A DNA stretch of 64,000 nucleotides from Lytechinus pictus (taxonomy: Eukaryota): the NCBI RefSeq assembly GCF_037042905.1, contig NC_087250.1, positions 10,046,001 through 10,110,000 on the forward strand, written 5' to 3'. Positions 20,501-55,368 of this stretch are shown one piece after another. Position numbers and translations under genes: made by a program. Under the pieces are notes generated by a model. The model did no database searches. It was not told the DNA's origin and worked only from the letters and a program-made list of their open reading frames with translations. How positions within the stretch are numbered: the stretch's first letter is position 1; each line of letters opens with the position of its first letter.

Positions 20501-23500
20501 ACTTATCAATTAGAAATCACTTTAAAAAGGCTTTGCTCAACTTAATTTCTACAAAACACACAACTACTTCACACATTTGATAAATCTTTTTGCACCAAAA
20601 TGCAAATTTTTTACATAAAAGTGCCCTTTTGGGCTTTGACCTCCCCCCCCCCCCCCCCCGAAACAAAAATATTTTCTGCCACCCCTGTCCAAGAGAGTGG
20701 AGAAAGGCATACTTTGAGAATGGGCATGGCAGGATCAGATGACATTGGTAATAATTATTGCGATATAAATCGCCTAGAAAAATAATGTATTTCATGTACG
20801 AAGGTAACTATATTATAATTTTAATATTATGTCTAAATCTATCATGAAATTTTTTTTTTTACATGTACAAGGGTCAAAAATTTTGCTTGCTCACACCTTT
20901 TATACATCTTGCCCTGTGTGTCATGTATGCCGACTAAGCATTGTTGGCTCATTGTTCCATAAATCGGAAGTTTGAAATGCCTTGGCCTTGGCCTTGACCT
21001 TGACCTTGAGGTTTTCAGGTTTTGGCCTTGGCCTTGGATTTTCATGCCTTGGCCTTGGGTATTGAAGCCTTGGCCTTGGCCTTGGAGGTTTGGGCCTTGA
21101 CTACAACACTGGTTCTAGGCATGTCTTCATGAATATTCAATGAGCAATTAGATGATGTCATATCCCCATTTGTTCTTTTGTATTTTATTATATTAAATTA
21201 GGTTAATTCAAAAATGTTCCTCCAAGAACTACAAAGATTGGATTCACAACTGATTTAGTGCATTAGATATTCATTGCTGCAACTTTTTCCATTATAATGG
21301 AGACATACTATTCACACATGTATGAAATAATGAAACAATTAAGATTTCATGTAATGACGTAAGAAAGGGGAAAGTAGGGATGTGACATCATCAGTCAACC
21401 TAATGAATATTCATGACGACGTGCAAATCACTTTTTACAAAATATTGCTCAACTGTAAAATTCAATAAAGGGTATTGTGGTTTGCGATGCATCTCGAATA
21501 TTTTGTGGGCAAGTCGTTTTACTAAAACTACATTGTGTCTTATCGTGCCAAGTATCAGTCCCTAGTTCAAAGTTGATTTCTGATTTTATTCACTGAGTCT
21601 ACTTTAGTCCCGCCGTTCTCACTGCACCCATAAGATTGCATCCCTGAAATATGTAAATACCCTAAATGTCAGTCAGGAAATGATTTTCTACCACTGACAT
21701 TTTCTGACTGTTGTGGCCCCTTTAAACCGCGATTTGTCTTTAGGTCATCTTAGCAATTACTTCCCAGACGCCTTCCAATTTTTTCGTAAGACAACGTGCT
21801 GTCCGTCCTGCGACACTCACATTCGACAATGACCTCTAATCTTTCCATTGTGATTTGACTGTCATTTTCAGTACATTTTCAACGTTCCAAAAAGCGTCTG
21901 CGAAATGGATGCTAAAATACGCCATTAGATCAATAACGCACGGAACTGAGTGTGTGAGTGGAAATCCAGTACACGTGAGTTTTTTATTCTTCTTCTTCTT
22001 GTTATTATTATTAACGTTTTAACTGTAGATGGGTGGTTTAAAATTAGTGCACAGTGTGCACCAATTCAAGAACCCAAATTTTATTTCCGTAGGCCTATAC
22101 TTTTATACATAAGATCGTAAATGTATTATTTTTATAGGACATCGCAGAAAACTCGGGACTCTAAAAGTTATAAGCAATGGTAAAATTTGTGGTGCGTTCC
22201 TTCGATTTTACATTAGCACTGGTCATGTTTTCGGTCCACCTACTTTTGCGTCTTGTGACCAATCGCGATCCTTGAAATAATACATATTTTGTAAAGTGGC
22301 AGTGCCGTTCAAATCTGTTCAGAAGGACAAAATCGTGATACTCAGTATGGAATGGACTCCTGTCATGCCGAAGGCTCCACTTACCTGTCAATAACCCTCC
22401 ACATGCAATGCCGACTCCGCACATGAAGCTGTAAAGCGACAAGGCTATGTCAAAATTCGCCTCGTCAAAGACCGCTTTCTTGGACAGGCTGATATACACA
22501 TTGTCCTCGATGAAAAAGCAGAGCCCCTGTGTAAATGCCAGGACAGCCCGAATAGGATAATCGGAGCCGATGAAATCCAACAACAAGGAGACAGTACAGA
22601 TTGTACCTGCGATGATATACACGACTAAATCATTGGCGCCATGTTTGAGGAGGATCATGAGGACGGAGCGACCAATCACGCCAGCTATACCGCCGATTGT
22701 GGATAGATAGATAGCTCTGGGTGGAGGAATACCCAACTCCTCGGCATGGGAAACCAGAAACAGCATCCAGGCATAGATTATATAATTCATCAAGAACGCA
22801 ATCGGAATTGAAACAACGAAGATCCTTTCCTGGAGTAGTCCGTGACACAGAACCGCTGGCGCGTTTCGGGCAGGGACAGGCTCGCATTGGATCAACCGTC
22901 TTTTCTCTTGGCAGGTTTCTTTGCAATTCTCATCCTCTCGTTCCTCCCCCTGTGATTCCTCCTCCGTCTTCCCTTCCTCCTCCCAGTGAAGATGCATATC
23001 CGTCTCGTTCATCAATTCGCCATTTTCATTCCCACGCTTGTGTTTACTCTCCGCATTCCCATGGTTGTTGGATCCGCCAGTTCTGCTAGCATCTCCGTTG
23101 CCTACCGCCTTCCGAATCGCAGCGCCGCATACGAGTGTATGAAGTGTAATAGCACCGAGAATGAGGAAGGCACCTTCGTATCCATAAGCTTGAAGCGATT
23201 TTTCAATCACAATAGGCATCAACATAGAACCTAATGTGTAGCCATATGAAGTTAATGTGCTCCAAAAAACAAAATGTTCTTGAAAGGAGTCGTTCAGTGC
23301 GAGGTTTAATGGTGTGAAGGTCATTGAAAATCCAGCACCTGAAAAATAAAATGTTGATGAGGGTATTAATAATGATAGTATAATATAATTGATGATATAA
23401 TAATGATGATGCTAATAGTAAGAAGAAGAAGAAGAATATTGCTTAAAAATAAATAACATTAATGATAATGATAATAAATTATAATAATTACAATTATATT

Positions 23501-32129: not shown

Positions 32130-32271
32130 TATATTTGGAATCAGCATAACATTCTACACAAGATAGACCTTTAAAGGCAATCCCATTTAGAAGATATACG
32201 CTGAAGACCTCAAATTCCTGTCGATTTGCACAGTTTATTATGCAGAATTGCGCGAATGGTCAGTTATGTCA

Positions 32272-33553
32272 AAGTAAAAAATGATATCATGTTTTCTCTC
32301 GACTCATATAATGTAGTTTTTATGGTGCTGTTAGATTTATCTGCCGCGTTTGATACAATAGATCATAACATTTTCATATCTCGGTTATTCAATAGAATAG
32401 GCGTTAGGTCCAAAGTCTTATCCTGGTTCCAATCATACCTGTCTGGATGGACTTCGCAAGTTGATATTGATGGCACATTGTCAAATCCCATAACTCTAGA
32501 ATTTGGACTCCCTCAGGGGTCAATAGTCGGACCCATAGGCTACTCAATATATACTCTTCCAGTTGGTGATATCATCCGAAATCACTGTATCAATTATCAT
32601 TTTTATGCTGACGACATACAATTATACGTTTCTTTTGATCCGAAGACTCCTGGAGCTCTCAATAATGCACCGGTTAAACTCCAGAATTGTACATTGTATA
32701 TCAGATCACAGTGGATGATAGTGAATAAGCTAAAATTAAATGACAAAAAAACTTAATTTTTTGTTGCGGCCTCTACTTATAACTTGCGCAATCTTCCAAA
32801 TATTCAACTTGATGTTGATGGTACACTCAAAAAATACGAAACCTTGGTGTCATATTTGATTCCCGCATGTCAATGTCGTACCATATCTCTCATATCTGTA
32901 GCAAAGTCACTTTTTATTTAAGGAACATTTCTAGAATCAGAAGGTTCATTGACCAGTACGTCTGCCTGTCACAATGCTGTTCGTTCATTGGTTCTGTCTC
33001 GTATCGATTATTGCAATGGGCTCCTTTCTACAATTCCCTATAATCAATTAATTCGTATTCAACGACTACAAAATTGGGCAGCACGATTAATTTTACAGGT
33101 TTCCCGATATCATCCTTCCCAACCAATCTTTAATTCTCTTCACTGGCTTCCTTTTAAACAGAGAATTACGTTCAAATTACTCTTGATTGTCTACAAAACA
33201 CTGAATAAACAGGCTCCACAGTATTTAAGTAACTGCTTGAATCTGTATACACCAACTAGCTATAGAGCACTTAAGTCGGCCAGTGATCACCTTCGCCTTA
33301 CATATTCATTAACTCGTACATTAGCTGGTGACAGAACTTTAACGGTGTCGGCTTCAAAATCCTGGAACGACCTGCCACTAATAATTAGACAGTCTCCAAC
33401 ATTAGCAATTTTCAAAAAGTCATTAAAAACTCATCTCTTTCGTACTTTGTAGTTTTTAAAATATTACATTTAATTAATTCATTGTAAGCGCTTTGGGCCT
33501 AATGGGAAAAGCGCAGTACAAATAATAAGTAATAATAATAATAATAATAATAA
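32272..33553 (+). mobile_element. 5'-truncated L2/Crack-type (CR1 group) LINE, RT fragment with stops and frameshifts
   Basis: LLDLSAAFDTIDH, GLPQGSIVGP, FYADDIQLY, SRIDYCNGLL, LHWLP, FKKSLKTHLF; 3' stem-loop tgtaagcgcttt..aaagcgc; (TAA)n tail; AAAGTA at both junctions. Confidence 0.92.
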
Positions 33554-40959: not shown

Positions 40960-41954
40960 GTCAGTGGAAAAATACTTCTCCATAACCCCCCCCCCTTCTT
41001 TCATTCTCTTTTTCTTCTTTTTTTCTTTTGGGTTGGAACTGGGTTGGATTTGAACCTCTCGCCATCCATTCAATGATGGATTCATATGGATTCATGAATC
41101 ATGGATTCATTCATTCATATTCAATGATTGAATGAACAAGGTTGATTTTTCATTTAACCTTGTTGTTCACTGTTACTCTACTATTCCCTGTGTGTCAAAA
41201 TAATGTTGCCAATGTTTGGCCTATTTTCGGGGACAAATGCTTGATTTTTTTTACTGTCACTGTGATGTCAGTTTCCATTATTGCAACTATTCATCTAGAC
41301 AGCTGGCAGCCGTCTGTTTCGAGGAGTTTTTTACCTTTTTTTTTTTTTATTTTCTCCTCGTACACAGACGGCTCGCTAGCGTGCAGCCACCATTAGGGGA
41401 CTTGCAATGCAAAATCCCCCCGTCGGGGCTCTTCAATTTTTGTCTTTAATGAATAAAAATTTTGAAAATTAACGCGACCAAAATGCAAATTAATATTCCC
41501 TCTTGGCATTAATCGCCAAAAAACGGTGAAAAATCAAGTTAAAAGGAACAAAAACAGTGACTTACCTCGGCTGTCGCGCAAATTCACTTCCCCGTTTTAT
41601 CCGATCTTAAGTACATAAACATATTGCCATTGAGTCCCCTGTACAGATCGCGCTAGAACTTCGGTCTCTGTATTTTGGTGAGTGAAGCCAACGGAGTTCA
41701 GCTGAACAACCAACATAACAGAGACCGAAGCTTTTGGTCTACTATTCATCATATTTTAGTTTTTGGAACAACTGCAGAATACCCGGACACTGCGTTACCT
41801 TATCGTTGGAGAGCCAACGCACAATGATGTACTTAAGCTATCAAATCAGAAAATCAGCTATAATAAATAATTGAATGATTTACAACTTACAAGTATTTTT
41901 TGAATAGATTCTAAGTGTTCAGACTGCACTGTAACGCTAACGATGCGAGCGCGC

Positions 41955-43630
41955 GCGATTAGTATGTAGACCAACAGTGTCCGCGATGCCAACGATGTGT
42001 ATATTTTCGTAGTACGTGTAGGCCAACACAGTCCGCGATGCTAGCGGTGCGTTGGTGTCCGTAGTACAGGCCAACACTGCCCGCGATGCCAACGATCTAT
42101 ATATATATCTGTGTGCATCTGTAGTATGTAGGCCGACATTGCCCGCGATGCCAACGATGTGTATATTTTCGTAGTACGTGTAGGCCAACACAGTCCGCGA
42201 TGGTAGCGGTGTGTTGGTGTCTGTAGTCGGTACAGGCCAACACTGCCCTCGATGCCAACGATCTATATCTGTGTTCTGTAGTATGTAGACCAACAGTGTC
42301 CGCGATGCCAACGATGTGTATATTTCCGTAGTATGTGTAGACCAACATTGCCCGCGATGCCAACGATGTGTTGGTGTCTGTAGTACAGGCCAACATTGCC
42401 CTCGATGCCAACGATGCGATCATATCTGTAGTTGCCTATGTAAACCAACATTGCCCGCCATGGCAACGATGTGTTGGTGTCTGTAGTACATGCCAACAGT
42501 GCCCGCGATGCCAACGATGCGATCATATCTGTAGTTTCCTATGTAGACCAACATTGCCCGCGATGCCAACGATGTGTTGGTGTCTGTACTGTAGAGTACA
42601 GGCCAACATTGCCCTCGATGCCAACGATGTGAATGTATCTTTAGTAGGTATAGGCCAACAGCGCCCGCGATGCCAACGATGTGTTGGTGCCTGTAGTAGA
42701 TGCCAACAGTGCCAACGATGCCAACAATGTAAATGTATCTTTAGTACGTATAGGCCAACAGCGCCGGCCAGGATGCCAACGATGTGTTGGTGTCTGTAGT
42801 ATAGGCCAACCTTGCCCGCGATGCCAACGATGTGAATGTATCTTTTGTATGTATAGGCCAACGGCGCCCGCGATGCCAACGATGTGTTGGTGCCTGTAGT
42901 AGATGCCAACAGTGCCAACGATGCCAACAATGTAAATGTATCTTTAGTACGTATAGGCCAACAGCGCCGGCCAGGATGCCAACGATGTGTTGGTGTCTGT
43001 AGTACAGGCCAACCTTGCCATCGATGCCAATGATGTGAATGTATCTTTAGTAAGTATAGGCCAACTTTGCCGGCGATGCCAACGATGTGAACGTATGTTT
43101 AGTATGTATATACCAACAGCGCCCGCGATGCCAACGATGTGTTGGTGCCTGTAGTAGATGCCAACAGTGCCAACGATGTGAATGTATCTTACATAGGCCA
43201 ACATTGCCGGCGATGCCAACGATGTGAATATGCCTGTAGTAGAGGCCAACATTGCCGGCGATGCCAACGATGTGAATATGCCTGTAGTAGAGGCCAACAT
43301 TGCCGGCGATGCCAACGATGTGAATGTATCTTTAGTAAGTATAGGCCAACTTTGCCGGCGATGCCAACGATGTGAATGTATGTTTAGTATGTATATACCA
43401 ACAGCGCCCGCGATGCCAACGATGTGTTGGTGCCTGTAGTAGATGCCAACAGTGCCAACGATGTGAATGTATCTTACATAGGCCAACATTGCCGGCGATG
43501 CCAACGATGTGAATATGCCTGTTGTAGAGGCCAACATTGCCGGCGATGCCAACGATGTGAATATGCCTGTAGTAGAGGCCAACATTGCCGGCGATGCCAA
43601 CGATGTCAAGGTTTCTCTAGTACAGGCCAT
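41955..43630. repeat. Minisatellite array, ~40-bp unit (ggccaacattgcccgcgatgccaacgatgtg...)
   Basis: The core gatgccaacgatg recurs dozens of times; a 285-bp higher-order duplication is shown by ORFs 43139 and 43424. Confidence 0.95.
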
Positions 43631-45321: not shown

Positions 45322-45600
45322 CAGGGGCGGATCCAGCCGGCGGCAAGAGAAAATTTGAAAATCGTGCCGGTCGATTTTTCGCTCAGTGGGGGATGGTGGG
45401 GGGGGGGGGGGGGAGAAGTAACCATTATTTTTTTTTGTTTTTTTGCTTAACGGGGGGAGGTGGGAAGTGTTTTGTTTTTTCCACCCCCCCCCCCCCCTTG
45501 AGCGCACGGGGAGGGGGCCCATCTTTTTTAAACAAAAAGGCTGTTTTTATCTTTTTTTCATAGGGGAGGGGGCACGGGGCCCCTCCTGGATCCTGCACTG
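45322..45600. mobile_element. hAT-type MITE
   Basis: CAGGGGCGGATCCAG / CTGGATCCTGCACTG; TSD TTCGCCAC / TTTGCCAC. Confidence 0.8.
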
Positions 45601-46498
45601 TTTGCCACTAAGCCAACTATAATCCACGTGAGAATCATAATTATCAACAACATTATGATGATTATCTTATTGAGTATCAGTATGTCGATATCTTCTTCAT
45701 CATCATTATAAATCTATATCATCACTAGCTTCATCATCGAGAACATGATCAATCATCATCATCATCACTATCATCAACCACATTATGTCGTTATCATCTT
45801 CATCATCGTCTTCGTCATCATAATCGGTCTTATCGTCCCCATTATCACTAGTTTCATCATCAGTTGATCGTTTAATCGTCACCATCAAAATAATATAATT
45901 TTCAACTTTATTTTCATCATGAATTTCATTATTATCTTTATCATTCTTAATTTCATCATCAACATCTCAATCATAATCATCATCATATTCATCATCACAT
46001 CAAATCACAATTATCATCTTCATCATCATCAAATTCTGTATTATTAATAACTCATCTTCATTCTTAAATTTCGTCATATCTTTATTTTACGGTATAAAGA
46101 AACAAACAATTTTATTAATTTTGAACGATAGAACATCTTACATAAAATCAATCATCTTCAAACTTTTATTTACGAATCATCATGCTCGAAGTAGTACAAA
46201 TGCCAAAACAATATTTGTATATAAACAGAACTGGACCTCAAAAGGTGTTTTTCTCTAAATATGTTTGTAATATGGTTAAATTGCCTTTTACAAATAGAAG
46301 AATAAGTTATATCTACATCATCATCATCTTCTATATTGTTAATAACTCATCTTCTTCTTAAATTTTGTCATATCTTTATTTTACGTCGTAAAGAAACAAA
46401 CCATTTTATTAATTTTGAACGATTGAACATGTTACATAAAATCAATCATCTTCAAACTTGTATTTACGAATCATCATGCTTGATTTAGTACTACAAAT

Positions 46499-48202
46499 AG
46501 GAGTGGGCTATACATGGGTCAAAAATACTTTTTTTGTAATTTCAATATGACAACAGTTTTTTTTTTATTCCTTGTTATGTATCTCAACATGAAATGAGAA
46601 TATTTTTTGTCTCGGGTCCGAGAAAAAAGTGTGCCGGGCCAAAATCCAAAATGGCCGCCAAAACCCCCCAAAATCACAGTTTTGGCCACAATTTTTTTAT
46701 TTGGTGGTCAATTTCTCTGGTTTTGGTGTCTATTCATATGTTTTGGGGGGCAGGCAATTTGTTTTTCCTATAATTAGTACTTTCAAACCACTATTTGTAG
46801 AGTTAAAAGGTAATTATACCTAAATTTTCCCATTTTTGTAGCCTTTTTTCAGCCAAAAAGTAGGTTTTATCATTCTGGGGTTCTGGGATATTAGATGGTA
46901 CAAGGTCAACAATAGCAAGCAGCTTCATATAGCTATTTTTGCTTTTATTCCTCCACTTTGGGTTTTACGGATATTTGTGAAATATATCTTATTAAATAAA
47001 AAAAATGTCAATTATCCATTGGGGCTATACAGTATACAATGTACTGTACATACATACTGCACTGCATAAATGCATTGGCCACTATGACAGATAACAAGGC
47101 TTGTATAAACTATAGTGTCATAGAATTAAATGAGCTCTCAGGTTTAGAATTAGATGCCTCAGAAATTAAAGATATGTTTTGTCTCAGAAATTGAGGACAT
47201 GTTTTGTCAAATATGCTAATACAGGGGGCGGAGAGAGGTAATTTACACTGTAGCTATTCGGGGCCCCGTTGCGTACAAATTTACCATTATGTTAACTTAA
47301 CTTAATGGTAACTTGCATGCAATCCTTGATTCTGATTGGCTGTTGATCAGCGTTACCATGATACTAGTAGTTACCTGACCACATAAACATAGGCCAGTTA
47401 GACACCAGAACCAGGTAAAAAAAAGCCTCCAAATGAAGAAGATATGGCTAAAAATGTGATGTACGTATATGATATATACATGTATGTGATATTTAAGTGC
47501 AATTTACGTTGCTGGTTTCATCATGTACATCAGCTGACAAGGAATTAAATTCACAATCTAATTCTAAACCTTTGAAGCTCATTTCTATGACACTATAGTT
47601 TATATACAGGCCTTGTCATATGCCATGGTGGTCAATGCATGGATATATGCAGTGTAGTATGTACAGTGCATTGTACACCGTATAGCCCCTATGGGTAAAT
47701 GACATTTTCTTTTATTTGATAAGATATATTTCACAAATATCTGTAAAACCCAAAGTGGAGGAATAAAAGCAATATAGCTATATGAAGCTGCTTGCTATTG
47801 TTGACCTCGTACCATCTAATATCCCAGAACCCCAGGATGATAAAACCTACCACTTATCGGCTGAAAAAGGGCTACAAAAATTGGAAAATTTAGGTATAAA
47901 CACCTTTTAACTCTACAAATAATGGTTTAAAAGTACTAATTATAGGAAAAACAAATTGCCTGCCCCCCAAAACATATGAATAGACACTAAAACCAGAGAA
48001 ATTGACCACCAAATAAAAAAATTGTGGCCAAAACTGTGATTTTGGAGGGTTTTGGTGGCCATTTTGGATTTTGGCCCGGCACACTTTTTTCTCGGACCCG
48101 AGACAAAAAATATTGTCATTTCATGTTGAGATAAGGTAAAAGGAACACAAAAAAACTGTTCCCACAGTAAAACAAAAAATCACCCATTTATAGCCCACTC
48201 CT
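46499..48202. mobile_element. MULE-like non-autonomous element with ~650-bp TIRs
   Basis: AGGAGTGGGCTATA / TATAGCCCACTCCT; 9-bp TSD ACTACAAAT (46490-46498, 48203-48211); mirror ORFs 46629/47890. Confidence 0.85.
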
Positions 48203-48774
48203 ACTACAAATGCTAAAACAATATTTGTATATAAACAGAATTGGATTTCAAAAAAGGGTTTTTCTCTAAATATTTGTGTAATATGGTTAAATTTCCTTTT
48301 CAAGTAGAAGAATAAGTTTAATCAAACAAATGCGATTTTGCGAACAAATCAATCGTCCATGGGTTGGTTTATAAAAGAAAAAAATTTTATTACAAAAATG
48401 TTGATCAATTGTCCATGGGTTGGTAATCATAAAAGGCTTGTCGAAATATCTTTATCCACAAACGAAACTTGGCGAAATATCATTTGTTCTTGTTGTTATA
48501 TAACCCATAAAAAACAAACCAAATGTAGTCGAAATATATATTGTCCTTGCATTGATACATATATATTAAAAAAATATATATGAAATAAGAGTTCGCGAAA
48601 TGTATCGTCTTTGCTTTTGGACACAAAACAATAAACCAAATTATTAAAGGCATTTATCAACATAAATATAAATCGTCCATGGGTGCGATTATTAAACAAC
48701 AAAATGAATGTATTAACTGAACACTTCAGATAATTGTTGTTCTACTGTTTTCTTACAAGTATTTCAATAGAAAG

Positions 48775-50706
48775 TCAGTTAAACATATCCTCCGAACATT
48801 TTCCGCTTTCTACGAGTGCTCTCCTCATATTGTCTGTAATGCACGTTGGCAGCTTTCGCATGTAGGCCGCCCTGTATTCTTGCTTGGTGAGTGTGTCGAA
48901 GGCCTCCCAGTCGATGTTATCCGCATCTCTCTTGATGAAGACTTCTGACTTTTTGCTGTTCGAAGAACTGCGTACTGATGTGAGCTCTCCGGCCATCTTT
49001 AATTGGTCCAAGGCGTTCTTAAACTCCACGCTCCCGACGCTTCGCATCGCCCTACTGCACGTCGACTTAAATGATCGATAGGTTAACACAGGTCCAGGCG
49101 TCTTTATTACTGATGTAGCCACGCATGTAGGAGTCGGTTGTTCTTTGACGGGTGTTGTAGACGGAGTGGTGATGTCACGGAGTTCCTGTGATACCAAAAT
49201 CATGTAAAAAATGAGAAAATATATGTATTAATTTCGTGTATATACAACATTTTAAATTTGGAAGTCGAAAACAAATTACAATATGTAAATACGTAAGTGT
49301 ATGCAACATTATAATTATTTTATTTTTTGTGTGTATTAGTTTAAACTCTGAACGATGCTCATGCACGTTTTTTTTTTTATAATGATTATTCATTAAGAAG
49401 TATATGAACTTTAAATTATTGGTTTATTAACCATTACGTAGAAATAAATGTGTTAAATTTAATAATACAAATCGATTTTAATGCAAATTTTCTTAATAAT
49501 GTTGACTTAGTGCTGTATCTATTTATACAACATGTGACCAATTATATTGATGTATTGAAAGAAAAAAAAATCATAAACATATTAATTTTATATATATAGT
49601 ACGGTGGAATAACTTACAGTTAAGAATGTTTCTTTCTGGCTCTCTACATACTCCACGTATGCCAAGGCTGCATCGAGGCTCTCCTTCTCGATCTGTCGTG
49701 CCGGTGGAGTTGGTTGGATCCCTTCCAGGAAGTCGTTCAGCACTGAGGACAAGACGTGAATGGGCGCCGCGAGCCTTACCACCAAATCAATTTTTTTGGA
49801 TTGTGGAGGTGTTTGTCCGTCGACGATGGCCTGGTTTATACTTTCTATGTAATTTTCGTTAATCTTGTCCAATTCAGCTTCACAATTGTCCGCGAAGGTG
49901 TAGGATCCTCCTGTCTCGTGTAGACTTTCCACAACTTGCAGCACATGGGTTATGGAGGGTTTGTCCGTGATTCGTCGCCTGGCTTCTCGTGTGGCGCTGG
50001 GGGAAGGACGCAAACAGTCTGGTATGTGAACGATCAGGCGTTCTATAAACCCGTTGCCGACGTCTAGGGCGGTGAGGAGGTGAGCGGCTGGCCCCGGTTG
50101 GGTGGCTCCCAATATAGAAAAGGCACGTTCTGCGTCGATCTCACGCTTATTCTGCGTTGCATAAGTTGTGGACACCTTCTCTCCGCTGAAAATATGACAT
50201 AACGTAGCGATGTCCCCGCTTGCGTTTTCACCGTCGCTTTTTGCCATCTTAAGCAAAACATCATGGACCTCGCTGTTTATTAACATTCCATTACCCTGTG
50301 AAAGTCTTTGAAATAGCCCAGCGGACGTAGACTTTCCTATTATAAGGATATTGGCGTCATCGCGTGCGAGTGACATAGCGTGTAGCGGTTCCGTTGCTCC
50401 CACTTGTATTGCCTGGGACTTCCCGGTTGATGGTGGTCCAACGAACAGAACGTAGATATTCGCCTTTGTCGTCATCCCGTTGAACCTGATGTCGGACGTT
50501 TCGGAGATAACAAAAGCTGTAGTCGTCAGGACGCTGTCTACCAGGTACCCTTCGCATGTACTAATAGAAAGCGCTATGTCCTTAAAATAACTCCGTACAT
50601 GCTGTGGGAAAAGTTGTCCGTAATCAAACGGTGATGATCGAAGTCTGGCGTGCAAGTTTGACCATGTCAGAGAGTTCTGTTTAGCGACGGTTGTCATGCG
50701 AGACAT
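48775..50706 (-). CDS. DUF3987/YfjI-like P-loop (AAA+) NTPase; exons 50706-49618 and 49185-48775; 499 aa
   Basis: Walker A YVLFVGPPSTGKS, STSAGL, Walker-B-like MLINSE, FSILGATQP, GNGFIERL; phase-0 intron GTAAGT...CACAG (49617-49186); no stops; GC-richer than the flanks. Confidence 0.82.
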
Positions 50707-51284
50707 TATGATCGAAGATGCGATAAAATAATTATGTCCCGAAAAAAAAGTAATATTCTTCCCTTTCGGGAGCGGCTGTGAAATAATTTGTCCGTTGATA
50801 TTAAGGTACAATAAAAACCCTTTTTATCAAATAAGATTTCATTGACTCCTTTTATTTTTGCACTCAATGCATCAGATATAAATTTAGAAGGTAATATGTA
50901 CAATTGTAAAATATAACAAATTAATAATATTGTATTTTAAGCACTGGTTCAATAATATTTAAACACATATAGGCCTTTTACTTAATAAAGACAAAGACAA
51001 TTTAAAAGAATGCAACAGACCATGTTTGCCATCATGAGCGAATGGGCCTGATTTGGGGAAGCTGCTCGCATAAAAGTCACAACTCAAAATTTTAATAATT
51101 CTAATTTTTAATCTTTGATCTTTTTTTTCTTTAAATCTTCGGAATTATGTTATTGGGTAATGCAATTGGGCATACCATTCACCATTAACATAAATAGCAT
51201 TCATTAGGCACACACCACTAAGCCACAATTGCGTTACAATTATCCAACAACTATCCATTAATTATACCACTATATAGGTACATA

Positions 51285-51797
51285 CTACTGAGACACCATA
51301 TTGGGCATATGGTATACCATTGATACAAATCATACCATTACACATATACCACTGAGACTATTGGATACCACTGAGACACCATTGGGTATATGGTATACCA
51401 TTCACCATACCAATCATATCATTATAGAGGCACATACTACTGAGACACCATTGAATACCACTGAGACACCATTGGTATATGGTATACCATTCATCATACC
51501 AATCATACCATTAGAGGCACATACTACTGAGAGTCTGAGACACCATTGTATACCACTGAGACACCATTGGGTATGGTATACCATTAATCATACCAATCAT
51601 ACCATTAGAGGCACATACTACTGAGACACCATTGTATACCACTGAGATACCATTGGTATATGGTATACCATTCACCATACAAATCATACCATTAGAGGCA
51701 CATACTACTGAGACACCATTGAATACCACTGAGACACCATTGGGTATATGGTATACCATTCATCATACCAATCATACCATTAGAGGCACATACTACT
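51285..51797. repeat. Tandem array of ~85-90-bp units containing the palindrome ATGGTATACCAT
   Basis: Repeated catactactgagacaccatt..accactgagacaccatt..atggtataccatt. Confidence 0.9.
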
Positions 51798-51860
51798 GCT
51801 ACGTACAGTCAACTCACCAAAATGAATGAAAACAATTTACAGCCATTACACTACTTTCCA

Positions 51861-52600
51861 CTTTTCAATAGAGGGCGCTATTCATTAAGCTAATTTTCAC
51901 CGATGCGTAAGAAAAACATTAGAATTATGGAAGATGATACCATAAGCAAACCCTGAAAATATGAGACCAAATTGAATGAAAAAGAGGAATTAAATATGGC
52001 AAGTTTGCATTTTGCAACTTTTCAATAGAGGGCGCTATTCATTAAGGTGATGGTCACTGATGCGAAAAACCCGTTTGAATTGTGAGGGATGATACCCTAG
52101 GCAAACCCTGAAAATATGAGACCAAAATAATTAAAAACAAGTTATGGCCATTTTACTATTTTCAACTTTTCAATAGAGGGCACTCTTTCTAAAGATAATG
52201 GTCACTGACGCGTAACAAACCATTGAATTATGAAGGATGTAGTCATAATTAGTAAGCTCAGAAAACATGAGACCAAAATGGATGAAAACGAGGAAGTTAT
52301 GGCAAGTTGCCCTTTTTCAATAGAGGGTGCTATTGATAGTAAGGTCTTGTTCACTGATGCGTAAAAACCGTTCGATTTATGATGGATGATACCATAGGCA
52401 AACTCTGCAAATATGAGACCGGAATAATTGAAACAAGGAAGTTATGGCCACTTTAGTATTTTCGACTTTTAAATCGAGGGTGCTAGATCTTAACTTAATG
52501 ATCACTGATGCGAGCTAAAATGTTGAGGGATGGCATGATTAGTAAACCCTGAAAATATAAAACGAAAATGCAAACAAACTTAAGGAAGTTATGGCCATTT
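51861..52600. repeat. Five ~150-bp tandem units (ttttcaatagagggcgct...gaagttatggc)
   Basis: Unit starts at ~51861, 52018, 52166, 52313, 52467. Confidence 0.9.
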
Positions 52601-53915: not shown

Positions 53916-54431
53916 AATTTATTATCATCATCAATATCATCTTCTTCATCATCATTTTCATCATTATTGTAGTTATTATCATTATTTTTTATCATTTTAC
54001 GTATTACTTCTGATGACAAAAATAACGATAAATTCAATTCGGATAATACTACTCCTTCTTTCCCGTATATGTTTCTTTCAGAAGAAGGACATGTTCATCA
54101 AATGACTAAAATACTTGAAAGGATGAATGTTTGCAATGATGTCGATGACCAAGGCGATTAGGAAGCTTTACCTGACTTCAGCACCACAGACTTCTCATAG
54201 ATGAAACTGCTGGAATTTATATTTTGAACAAGGAAGACGAACACATTGACTTGTTATTAACAACTTTCAGTTGATATCTACGAAACAAAGTTCTCAACTG
54301 AGCTTTACATATTGAACGATAGGGCCAATACCTGATCGTCGTGATGATAACCATAACCTGCACTACCAACGTTTTTTAAAGAGACTGAAAGCAAAACCTG
54401 CGAAAAGAAAATGCCTAGCGAAAGTTATTTA

Positions 54432-55368
54432 GCAAAAACTATCTTCTTTGGCGTTCAATTGTTTCTGCTATTCCACAGACAGTTAAAGCTCGTTGTTTCG
54501 AGAGGCGACATCTGTTAAAAAAGTTAGATATTTGTATAGTTTTTGGTAATAAAAAAATATTTATATCAAAATTGTCAACCAAGATCATAAATATGATATT
54601 AAAAGAAGATAAATACCAAACCCCTACTTCTGAAATATATTGGAGATCAAGGTATGATATAAGTGAAGATGATTTTAGTTTTATTTACGAGTTGCCTTTT
54701 AAAGTTATTCCAGATACAAGAACAAGAATATTTCAATATAAAATGAATACAAGATGCTTACTAGTAAATGCAAAGTTAAAGAAAATGAAAGTTGTAGATA
54801 ATGAGATGTGTTCTTTTTGTAAACAAGAACAGGAAACAATTGAACACCTGTTGGTAGAATGTTCGCATACTCGAGATTTTTGGAATGAATTTCTAAGATG
54901 GTGGCATACTAAATTTAAAAAAGAAATTATCCAAGTAAAGGATGAAGAGATTTTATTCGGAATTAAAAACAAGCAAGATGTGTTATTGAATCATTGCCTT
55001 ATTGTAGCAAAGAAAACTTTATATCTGTGTAGATATATTAATATCCTTCCTTGTTTTGACTTGTTTACCAGTAAATTAAAACAAGTGTACCAAACAGAAA
55101 AGTGTATTGCTTACAGGGACTCTACTATGTATAGATTTTTAAAAAAATGGAGTCTATTAGATTTTGGGTAATGTAGACGAACAGACCTATATTGCTTCTC
55201 TATGTTTCTTTTATTTTCCCTTTGTTGTTTTTGTTTTGTATGTATTTTTTTTATCAAAATGTAACCTATCCATACTGTACATTGTTATTTTATATGGTTA
55301 TCAAACTTGTTTTTGTAATATGTGTATGAGATGGTTATACTAAACAAACAAAAAAAAAAAAAAAAAAA
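54432..55368 (+). mobile_element. 5'-truncated L1/Tx1-clade LINE (ORF2 C-terminus, 3'UTR, poly(A))
   Basis: SAIP...FQYKMNTRCL...CSFCKQEQETIEHLLVECSHTRDFW...FLKKW; poly(A) at 55350-55368; TTAG at both junctions. Confidence 0.9.

Follow-up and report, generated by a model that had tools for sequence, protein, structure and literature searches.

The window analysed here, a 64,000-nt stretch of contig NC_087250.1 (positions 10,046,001 to 10,110,000), carries on its minus strand, at 48775-50706, an intact two-exon gene for a protein of 499 aa. The protein is a DUF3987-type ATPase of the AAA+ class (superfamily 6, SF6, related to the MCM helicases) with a winged helix at its C-terminus. Judged from its sequence relatives, it belongs to an old, intron-bearing lineage present in cnidarians and echinoderms, which appears to have descended from the replicative helicase used by phages or by mobile elements of prokaryotes. 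On balance we lean towards the view that this family, an old branch in animals of the replicative helicases of mobile elements, persists as low-copy selfish DNA and has a selfish role rather than one in the host.

The structure of the gene is well defined (Table 1). A stop-to-stop frame of 411 aa at 49588..50823 (-) contains exon 1, with 50706 as the position of the first ATG; the resulting N-terminus, MSRMTTVAKQ, agrees with the starts of the homologs. The translation of exon 1 includes the sequences GPPSTGKS (residues 90-97), LINSE (142-146), ILGATQP (198-204) and GFIERL (219-224). The exons have a G+C fraction of 0.44-0.51, the intron one of 0.30 and the flanks one of 0.28-0.35. An original prediction, made from the letters of the window, had described a 499-aa, two-exon gene with a canonical phase-0 intron, richer in G+C than its flanks and carrying a Walker A motif GPPSTGKS, a deviant INSE at the Walker B position, ILGATQP and GFIERL. 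Coordinates, translations and composition agree with that description throughout.

Exon 1 scores 68.5 bits (E 7.7e-19) with the Pfam family DUF3987 (PF13148), over that family's cut-off of 27, and in a six-frame search of the genome with the DUF3987 profile the window copy scores 48 bits and a paralog in the same genome 59.6 bits. Helicase and primase/primase-helicase families of PHROGs also match exon 1, with E values down to 9e-12, and its nearest Atlas clusters, with a score of 0.97, are DUF3987 proteins of phages and Bacteroidota. The structure predicted for exon 1 from a 74-row alignment has a predicted local distance difference test score (pLDDT) of 94.1 and a predicted template-modelling score (pTM) of 0.94. 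Compared with predicted viral structures (BFVD), this model finds its best matches in DUF3987 and primase-helicase proteins of tailed phages (best E 8.8e-16, template-modelling (TM) scores 0.55-0.68). The named matches among the top 50 are tailed-phage proteins together with one archaeal virus, comprising DUF3987 proteins, primase-polymerase fusions and helicases; none of these named matches comes from a eukaryotic virus. The earlier assignment to the DUF3987/YfjI type is thus upheld by profile, cluster and fold. Proteins of this kind are described in a global survey, in the portion that concerns them, as SF6 helicases distantly related to MCM, with a domain of the winged helix-turn-helix type at the C-terminus, that act as replicative helicases of phages (PMC4889955). 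A Pfam search for a primase domain (AEP, DnaG, PriCT) within the protein gave nothing, and PADLOC and NCBIfam searches gave no match, so that no known defence family was matched either. A search for longer or fused forms of exon 1 and exon 2 scored nothing, and missed also the known relatives of 502 and 838 aa.

The second exon had been guessed to encode a winged-helix-like domain, and we assign it to the winged-helix fold with moderate confidence on the basis of a predicted structure. The model has a pLDDT of 87 and the order helix, two-residue strand, helix, helix, strand, strand, followed by three further helices. All 50 matches listed for it by VIA are winged-helix proteins (Z 5.1-6.7, root-mean-square deviation 2.0-4.7 for most). 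Foldseek matches of the same model are weak, the best having an E value of 0.05, and by sequence the protein matches no Pfam winged-helix family.

The residues expected to carry out catalysis are conserved across the family. Lys96, Glu146, Gln203 and Arg223 are invariant in all 14 full-length members from echinoderms and cnidarians, and in the 74-row alignment the Lys is found in 52 of 53 sequences, the Glu in 58 of 60, the Gln in 63 of 69 and the Arg in 62 of 64. Together with the model of exon 1, this conservation bears out the reading of these segments as AAA+ motifs. The position of the Walker B Asp is occupied by Ser in the window protein and, across 60 relatives, by Pro (28), Gly (10), Ser (9), Ala (5), Asp (5) and Thr (3); the Asp is retained in the Nematostella-type branch. 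From these patterns the motor is probably active, albeit chemically unusual.

How might such a protein work? By analogy with a characterised relative, it is most likely a ring-shaped, ATP-driven DNA motor that is positioned by its winged helix. The relative in question, and our model for the mechanism, is AgaPH, a bacterial PriCT-DUF3987 protein and the one DUF3987 helicase to have been characterised; in the part of its description that bears on this point it is an ATP-dependent helicase of 5'-3' polarity that elutes as an oligomer (PMC11724360). The window protein would likewise assemble into a ring, in which Lys96/Ser97 and Glu146 of one subunit would form an ATP site that is completed by Arg223 of its neighbour. 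Hydrolysis of ATP would drive the ring along DNA or unwind it, with the β-hairpin that precedes the sensor-1 strand probably holding the DNA, and the C-terminal winged helix would serve to position the ring, either on DNA or on a partner.

The comparative evidence for the intron is good. The 502-aa Lytechinus pictus model, which is 73% identical to the window protein, and one further protein read through the same exon junction without interruption. In the paralog from the window's own genome (37% identical), exon 1 is separated from an intact exon 2 by an intron (GTGAAT...CAG) of ~1.4 kb that has the same phase and position. On the contigs of many relatives, frames called in prokaryotic style show homology that ends exactly where exon 1 ends and continues with VS, VR, VK, VI or VN, which is what a translated donor site of the GT type gives. 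The same exon 1 end with read-through of this type is seen in the window gene, its paralog, P0003, P0007, P0010, P0012, P0020, P0025, P0026 and P0028, and P0141 ends like the other exon 1 sequences where it aligns. The junction is supported by this comparison, and expression of a spliced mRNA is putative. Because the intron position is common to the whole animal family, the acquisition is old and not a recent transfer into this genome.

Relatives at E<=1e-3 number 421 among 1.84 billion representatives. Twenty clusters were looked up for names and most other matches are unnamed, so the taxonomic spread given here is that of the members named so far. Named echinoderm members are from the sea urchin Lytechinus pictus, the sea star Patiria miniata and the sea cucumber Holothuria leucospilota; the corals are represented by four Acropora species and Orbicella faveolata, and the other cnidarians by the octocoral Paramuricea clavata, the hydroid Hydractinia symbiolongicarpus (at least five loci) and the anemone Nematostella vectensis. 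The family also includes one EukProt record. Several copies per genome are present in Hydractinia, Holothuria, Nematostella and Orbicella. The animal gene models (L. pictus LOC129268685, Patiria LOC119735838, Acropora LOC107354627, Hydractinia LOC130613599 and Nematostella LOC116605640), all 'uncharacterized protein' entries that exist as database predictions only, share the two-domain architecture, a length of 480-517 aa and the exon junction, with identities to exon 1 that run from 73% down to ~22-25%. The window copy differs from them in having a near-identical second copy and a transposable element nested in its 3' flank. The original prediction had placed the gene outside the core animal set, and this fits a family that is multi-copy, includes dead copies and is named so far only in echinoderms and cnidarians.

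A tree was built from 31 rows, using the first 400 residues of each (P0171 was cut to 372) and excluding fragments. The window protein and that of L. pictus group together with support of 100/100, and the paralog from the window's own genome is sister to both at 93/94. All named echinoderms form one clade (95/97), to which the Acropora-type group is sister (93/96). The Hydractinia clade and that of the representative of the Paramuricea cluster are separate, and the Nematostella-type group lies on a long branch. The proteins of Acropora digitifera and Orbicella faveolata (P0192 and P0197) are identical at 290 of 311 positions (93%), compared with 73% for the window protein and L. pictus. The Acropora and Orbicella lineages split far earlier than the urchins whose copies are 73% identical, and the value of 93% may reflect horizontal spread, contamination or rates that are very uneven.

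A protein search of the genome gave 12 matches at nine places. Only three of these are intact and pass the Pfam cut-off, namely the window gene and those at C2:49.23 Mb and C2:39.96 Mb; five other places carry one to six stops. The window and the locus at C2:49.23 Mb (hereafter the C2 copy) share a unit of 2851 bp that is 99.4% identical and has sharp, abrupt edges, in which the sequence equivalent to 46203-46498 of the window is joined to that of 48202-50756. Within the 2,555-bp segment 48202-50756 there are 14 differences, three of them indel positions in the intron and five in the exons, the rest being in the 3' flank. Contigs of two other public runs, X1 and X9, carry the gene together with its intron sequence, behaving in this respect as DNA, and extend from the gene into the C2 flank; the C2 copy is thus not an artefact of assembly. 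A second subfamily is seen as a 3.2-kb piece that starts inside exon 1 and is 95-98% identical on C2, C3 and C15. This piece (L021:2523-5756, L026/L027 and L028/L029) comprises a 5'-truncated gene and ~2.9 kb of non-coding sequence, and its C2 instance lies directly 3' of the intact paralog. In this genome the family behaves as low-copy selfish DNA and not as a core gene: pieces such as these are copied at the level of DNA, with the intron kept, to other chromosomes, where most of them go on to decay.

The left flank of the C2 copy (L014:6574-7400) has a 95% identical copy on C16 (L017:4323-5033; C16:5999323-6000033), which ends where the helicase unit begins on C2, and the C2 locus may have been put together as a mosaic from copied pieces. 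The C16 sequence past the breakpoint is unrelated, and no empty site was found. A block 3' of both the window gene and a pseudogene on C6 proved to be an unrelated, very young high-copy repeat.

Several observations weigh against a selfish family. The copy number is far below that of typical transposon families, and the search for a mobile element around the gene gave little. Neither copy has terminal repeats, inverted or direct, or a target-site duplication at its edges, and inspection of the edges by eye revealed no termini of the poly-A type (as in long interspersed nuclear elements), the Helitron type or the terminal inverted repeat type. The only inverted repeats that bracket anything here are the arms of the element nested in the 3' flank; none bracket the gene. 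There is no primase, integrase, transposase or capsid gene among the 41 open reading frames (ORFs) of at least 100 aa in the window, and no primase among 42 ORFs near the C2 copy and near the paralog. When ORFs of at least 70 aa from eight regions (the window locus and seven copy loci) were compared all against all, only the helicase exons and unrelated repeats proved to be shared. The window locus has in addition an extra repeat unit (46011-46202), which places the end of the C2 copy within a repeat of that locus. The C2 copy thus has the look of a partial, segmental copy taken from a window-like source and not of an element with fixed ends. The original prediction had proposed the motor of a mobile or virus-like element, and this is not borne out: no terminal repeats, target duplication, common ends or partner genes were found, and no relative was found at the level of sequence, either by a single-protein search of viral, prokaryote-genome and metagenome contigs or by tblastn against 50,697 phage records.

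Further points against the preferred reading concern constraint and expression. Four of the five exon differences between the two young copies are non-synonymous and one is synonymous, with no sign of recent constraint between them. The Walker B Asp is mostly lost, and the ATPase chemistry may be altered or weak as a result. The echinoderm clade in the tree also fits vertical descent of a host gene. For expression, the original prediction had proposed RNA sequencing across the 49617/49186 junction as a check; in two raw RNA runs, of each of which ~6% was read, 12 reads aligned (4 + 8), none of them with a splice joint, and some fall within the intron. None of the runs listed as containing this sequence is recorded as RNA. 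All of the aligned depth in the two raw runs is in the first-mate-on-minus columns, which speaks for real, very low, strand-specific transcription in either the sense or the antisense direction.

The main competing explanation is a domesticated, horizontally acquired gene, which the original prediction had named as an alternative. An ancient transfer of a mobile-element helicase into early animals could have been followed by its domestication as a host gene with a cellular role, in DNA repair, replication stress or defence against viruses for instance, with the gene kept in cnidarians and echinoderms and lost elsewhere, and with the extra copies representing ordinary birth and death within a gene family. 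We regard this as possible, if the less probable of the two accounts. The conserved intron position, intact proteins of 480-517 aa in two phyla and invariant catalytic residues are all consistent with a host gene, as are the well-supported echinoderm clade, in which the echinoid sequences group together, the lack of transposon hallmarks and the small number of intact copies. A host gene sits less well, however, with dispersed copies that are 95-99% identical on different chromosomes and each consist of just the gene or a piece of it, with dead copies that outnumber live ones, and with the multiple copies per genome in several of the other animals. Also against it, the Acropora-type sequences stand beside the echinoderms and apart from the other cnidarian groups, the Acropora and Orbicella proteins are 93% identical, there is no more than a handful of RNA reads, none of them spliced, and no known defence family is matched.

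Might the window copy instead be a decaying relic, a recent duplicate in a dying family that is open by chance and has no present function? The excess of non-synonymous differences, the deviant Walker B motif, the very low and unspliced RNA signal, the many broken copies and the surroundings, rich in transposable elements and with one inserted in the 3' flank, would all be in keeping with this. We nevertheless think it improbable. A frame of 499 codons is open over two exons in a genome of ~30-35% G+C, its splice signals and all four catalytic residues are intact, and the same architecture is open both in L. pictus and in the paralog that is 37% identical, which requires long-term selection on at least some copies. 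Contamination by bacterial or phage DNA, or an assembly artefact, comes to mind because the domain family is otherwise prokaryotic and phage-borne; it is scarcely credible for a gene with a spliceosomal-type intron at a conserved position that lies on a chromosome-scale contig between animal repeats. The phage records searched by tblastn and the scanned prokaryote genome contigs gave, respectively, no match and no close relative, and the contigs of two other public runs hold the same gene joined to the C2 flank. Low-copy selfish DNA is the reading that we prefer for the family.

A more specific form of this reading is that marine invertebrates harbour low-copy DNA elements of a class not recognised so far, with a phage-type SF6 replicative helicase at their core, which may move by means of IS1595/Merlin-like transposases and may spread horizontally. 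We consider this doubtful. It is hinted at by a Holothuria model with a transposase between its exons, by two transposase ORFs that flank the C2 copy and by the 93% identity of the Acropora and Orbicella proteins. The Holothuria model (P0171, 838 aa) comprises exon 1, an IS1595/Merlin-type DDE transposase and exon 2, and can be explained by a transposon that sits in the intron. Near the C2 copy, at a distance of 8.4 kb, there is an intact 379-aa transposase ORF of the IS1595/Merlin type (L015:8664-9800; C2:49246663-49247799) that is of the same family as the transposase of the Holothuria model (51% identical) and has no near-identical copy in the genome, the next best being 61%; a related transposase fragment lies ~12 kb away on the other side (L013:4889-5320). 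Only one of the eight compared loci has such a neighbour, the genome holds ~42 IS1595-like transposase loci (from the grouping of 78 matches), and one neighbour by chance is unlikely but possible, so the link to IS1595 could be fortuitous. Against the link is also the fact that the closest relatives of the transposase are at places without a helicase match and that no Atlas cluster has both domains. Were such a class of elements real, it would provide the first SF6 (DUF3987) replicative helicase in any eukaryotic element.

The original prediction that the gene is surrounded only by repeats is largely, if not wholly, accurate: the nested element at 46499-48201 lies on one side and tandem arrays at 51282-52512 on the other, and there is no Pfam domain in ORFs of at least 100 aa within ~3.7 kb. 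The arms of the nested element extend over ~650 bp in the genome search, the best arm pair being 304 nt at 94%, and thousands of candidate copies exist at 94-97% identity. Its absence from the C2 copy implies that it was inserted after the duplication or into another allele. The two arrays adjoin one another just upstream of the gene and have periods of 181/87 bp (51282-51798) and 148/297 bp (51816-52512). Further off, at 41800-43565, is a 1765-bp repeat with at least 18 further occurrences, spread over many chromosomes, at 99-100% identity (1295 candidates at a first look); it is internally repetitive, has long open frames on both strands and looks like a very recently active element or a satellite-like unit. 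An imperfect inverted repeat at 45395-45497 consists of a G run and a C run that lie ~50 nt from each other. Remnants of reverse transcriptases at 2-619, 32205-32753 and 54419-55168 (zf-RVT twice, RVT_1 once) indicate a neighbourhood rich in retroelements. The nearest ordinary gene seen is a 416-aa open frame at 22164-23411 (-) that matches the Major Facilitator Superfamily (E 3.9e-15) and probably belongs, as an exon, to a transporter gene of the host.

Table 1. The helicase gene and its flanking segments, in window coordinates; residue numbers refer to the translation of exon 1.
Feature	Position	Strand	Description
Exon 1	49618..50706	-	363 codons, no internal stop; N-terminal helical region, AAA+ core and lid
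Exon 1 features			Walker A, residues 90-97; Walker B position, 142-146; hairpin between helix 3 and strand 4; TQ at sensor-1 position, 202-203; Arg finger, R223
Intron	49186..49617	-	432 nt, phase 0, AT-rich, GTAAGT...ATCACAG; junction also in P0004, P0009 and the paralog of the same genome
Exon 2	48775..49185	-	136 codons and TGA; linker, putative winged-helix domain, extra C-terminal helices
Leader	50707..50756	-	50 nt upstream of ATG; last part common to the C2 copy, identity ending abruptly at 50756/50757
3' flank	48202..48774	-	common to the C2 copy; holds 6 of the 14 differences
Distal 3' segment	46203..46498	-	296 bp, 100% identical to the C2 copy, where it is contiguous with 48202; part of a ~297-bp direct repeat
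Extra repeat unit	46011..46202	-	at the window locus only; ~89% like 46307-46498
Nested high-copy element	46499..48201	.	1703 bp, long inverted arms, TACTACAAAT duplicated at its two junctions; missing from the C2 copy

What is notable in this family is an intact, intron-bearing, multi-copy DUF3987 lineage in animals of two phyla, since these helicases are otherwise described from phages and bacterial mobile elements. The global survey remarks, in the portion that treats them, that SF6 helicases are 'curiously, not in eukaryotic viruses' (PMC4889955). A search of the literature, judged by titles and abstracts, found no report of DUF3987 (PF13148) in a eukaryote, all papers being on prokaryotes or phages, and a further search for an MCM-like helicase with a transposon in cnidarians found nothing relevant. 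If the family is selfish, it represents a new replication module among eukaryotic mobile DNA; if it has been domesticated, it supplies a new instance of animals recruiting a helicase from a mobile element. On either account, the loss of the Walker B Asp throughout most of the family, with the Glu and the Arg finger kept, is a biochemical oddity that can be tested.

Helicases of replication type that have mobile-element ancestry and multiple copies are familiar from animal genomes in the Rep/Pif1-like proteins of Helitrons and the SF3 helicases of Polintons (Mavericks) and virophage-like elements. The window gene differs from these in that it encodes an SF6 and not an SF1 or SF3 helicase, has no Rep, polymerase, integrase or capsid partner, and has no termini. 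A closer comparison is with the MCM helicases of archaea and eukaryotes. MCM subunits are the top matches of the exon 1 model among solved structures (E 4e-7, TM scores 0.45-0.5, ~12-15% identity), and the window protein shares with them the Arg-finger motif (DRF/ERL), the hairpin between helix 3 and strand 4 and a C-terminal winged helix. In contrast, the Pfam MCM family (PF00493) scores only 12.7 bits (E 0.07), under its cut-off of 23.3, the N-terminal 84 residues are mainly helical in the model and do not form the OB/zinc domain of the MCM type, and a sequence search of solved structures gave chance-level matches only (E 0.33 and weaker). The protein is not one of MCM2-9.

The closest likeness is to the DUF3987 helicases of phages and mobile elements, of which AgaPH is one example and the YfjI protein of an E. 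coli prophage another. The animal gene departs from these in its genomic setting and conserved intron, in having neither PriCT nor an adjacent or fused primase, and in the replacement of the Walker B Asp, and the sequence similarity is at the level of profiles only. Where AgaPH has a 'DExx' acidic pair at Walker B, the window protein keeps only Glu146 (PMC11724360, where this motif is covered). DUF3987 proteins often stand with a primase, an association given as frequent, not universal, in the relevant portion of the survey (PMC4889955). The Pfam match, the fold, the Walker A motif, the catalytic Glu, the Arg finger and the C-terminal winged helix are common to both, the last recalling the WHD_MCM domain found on 97% of the members of bacterial DUF3987 clusters.

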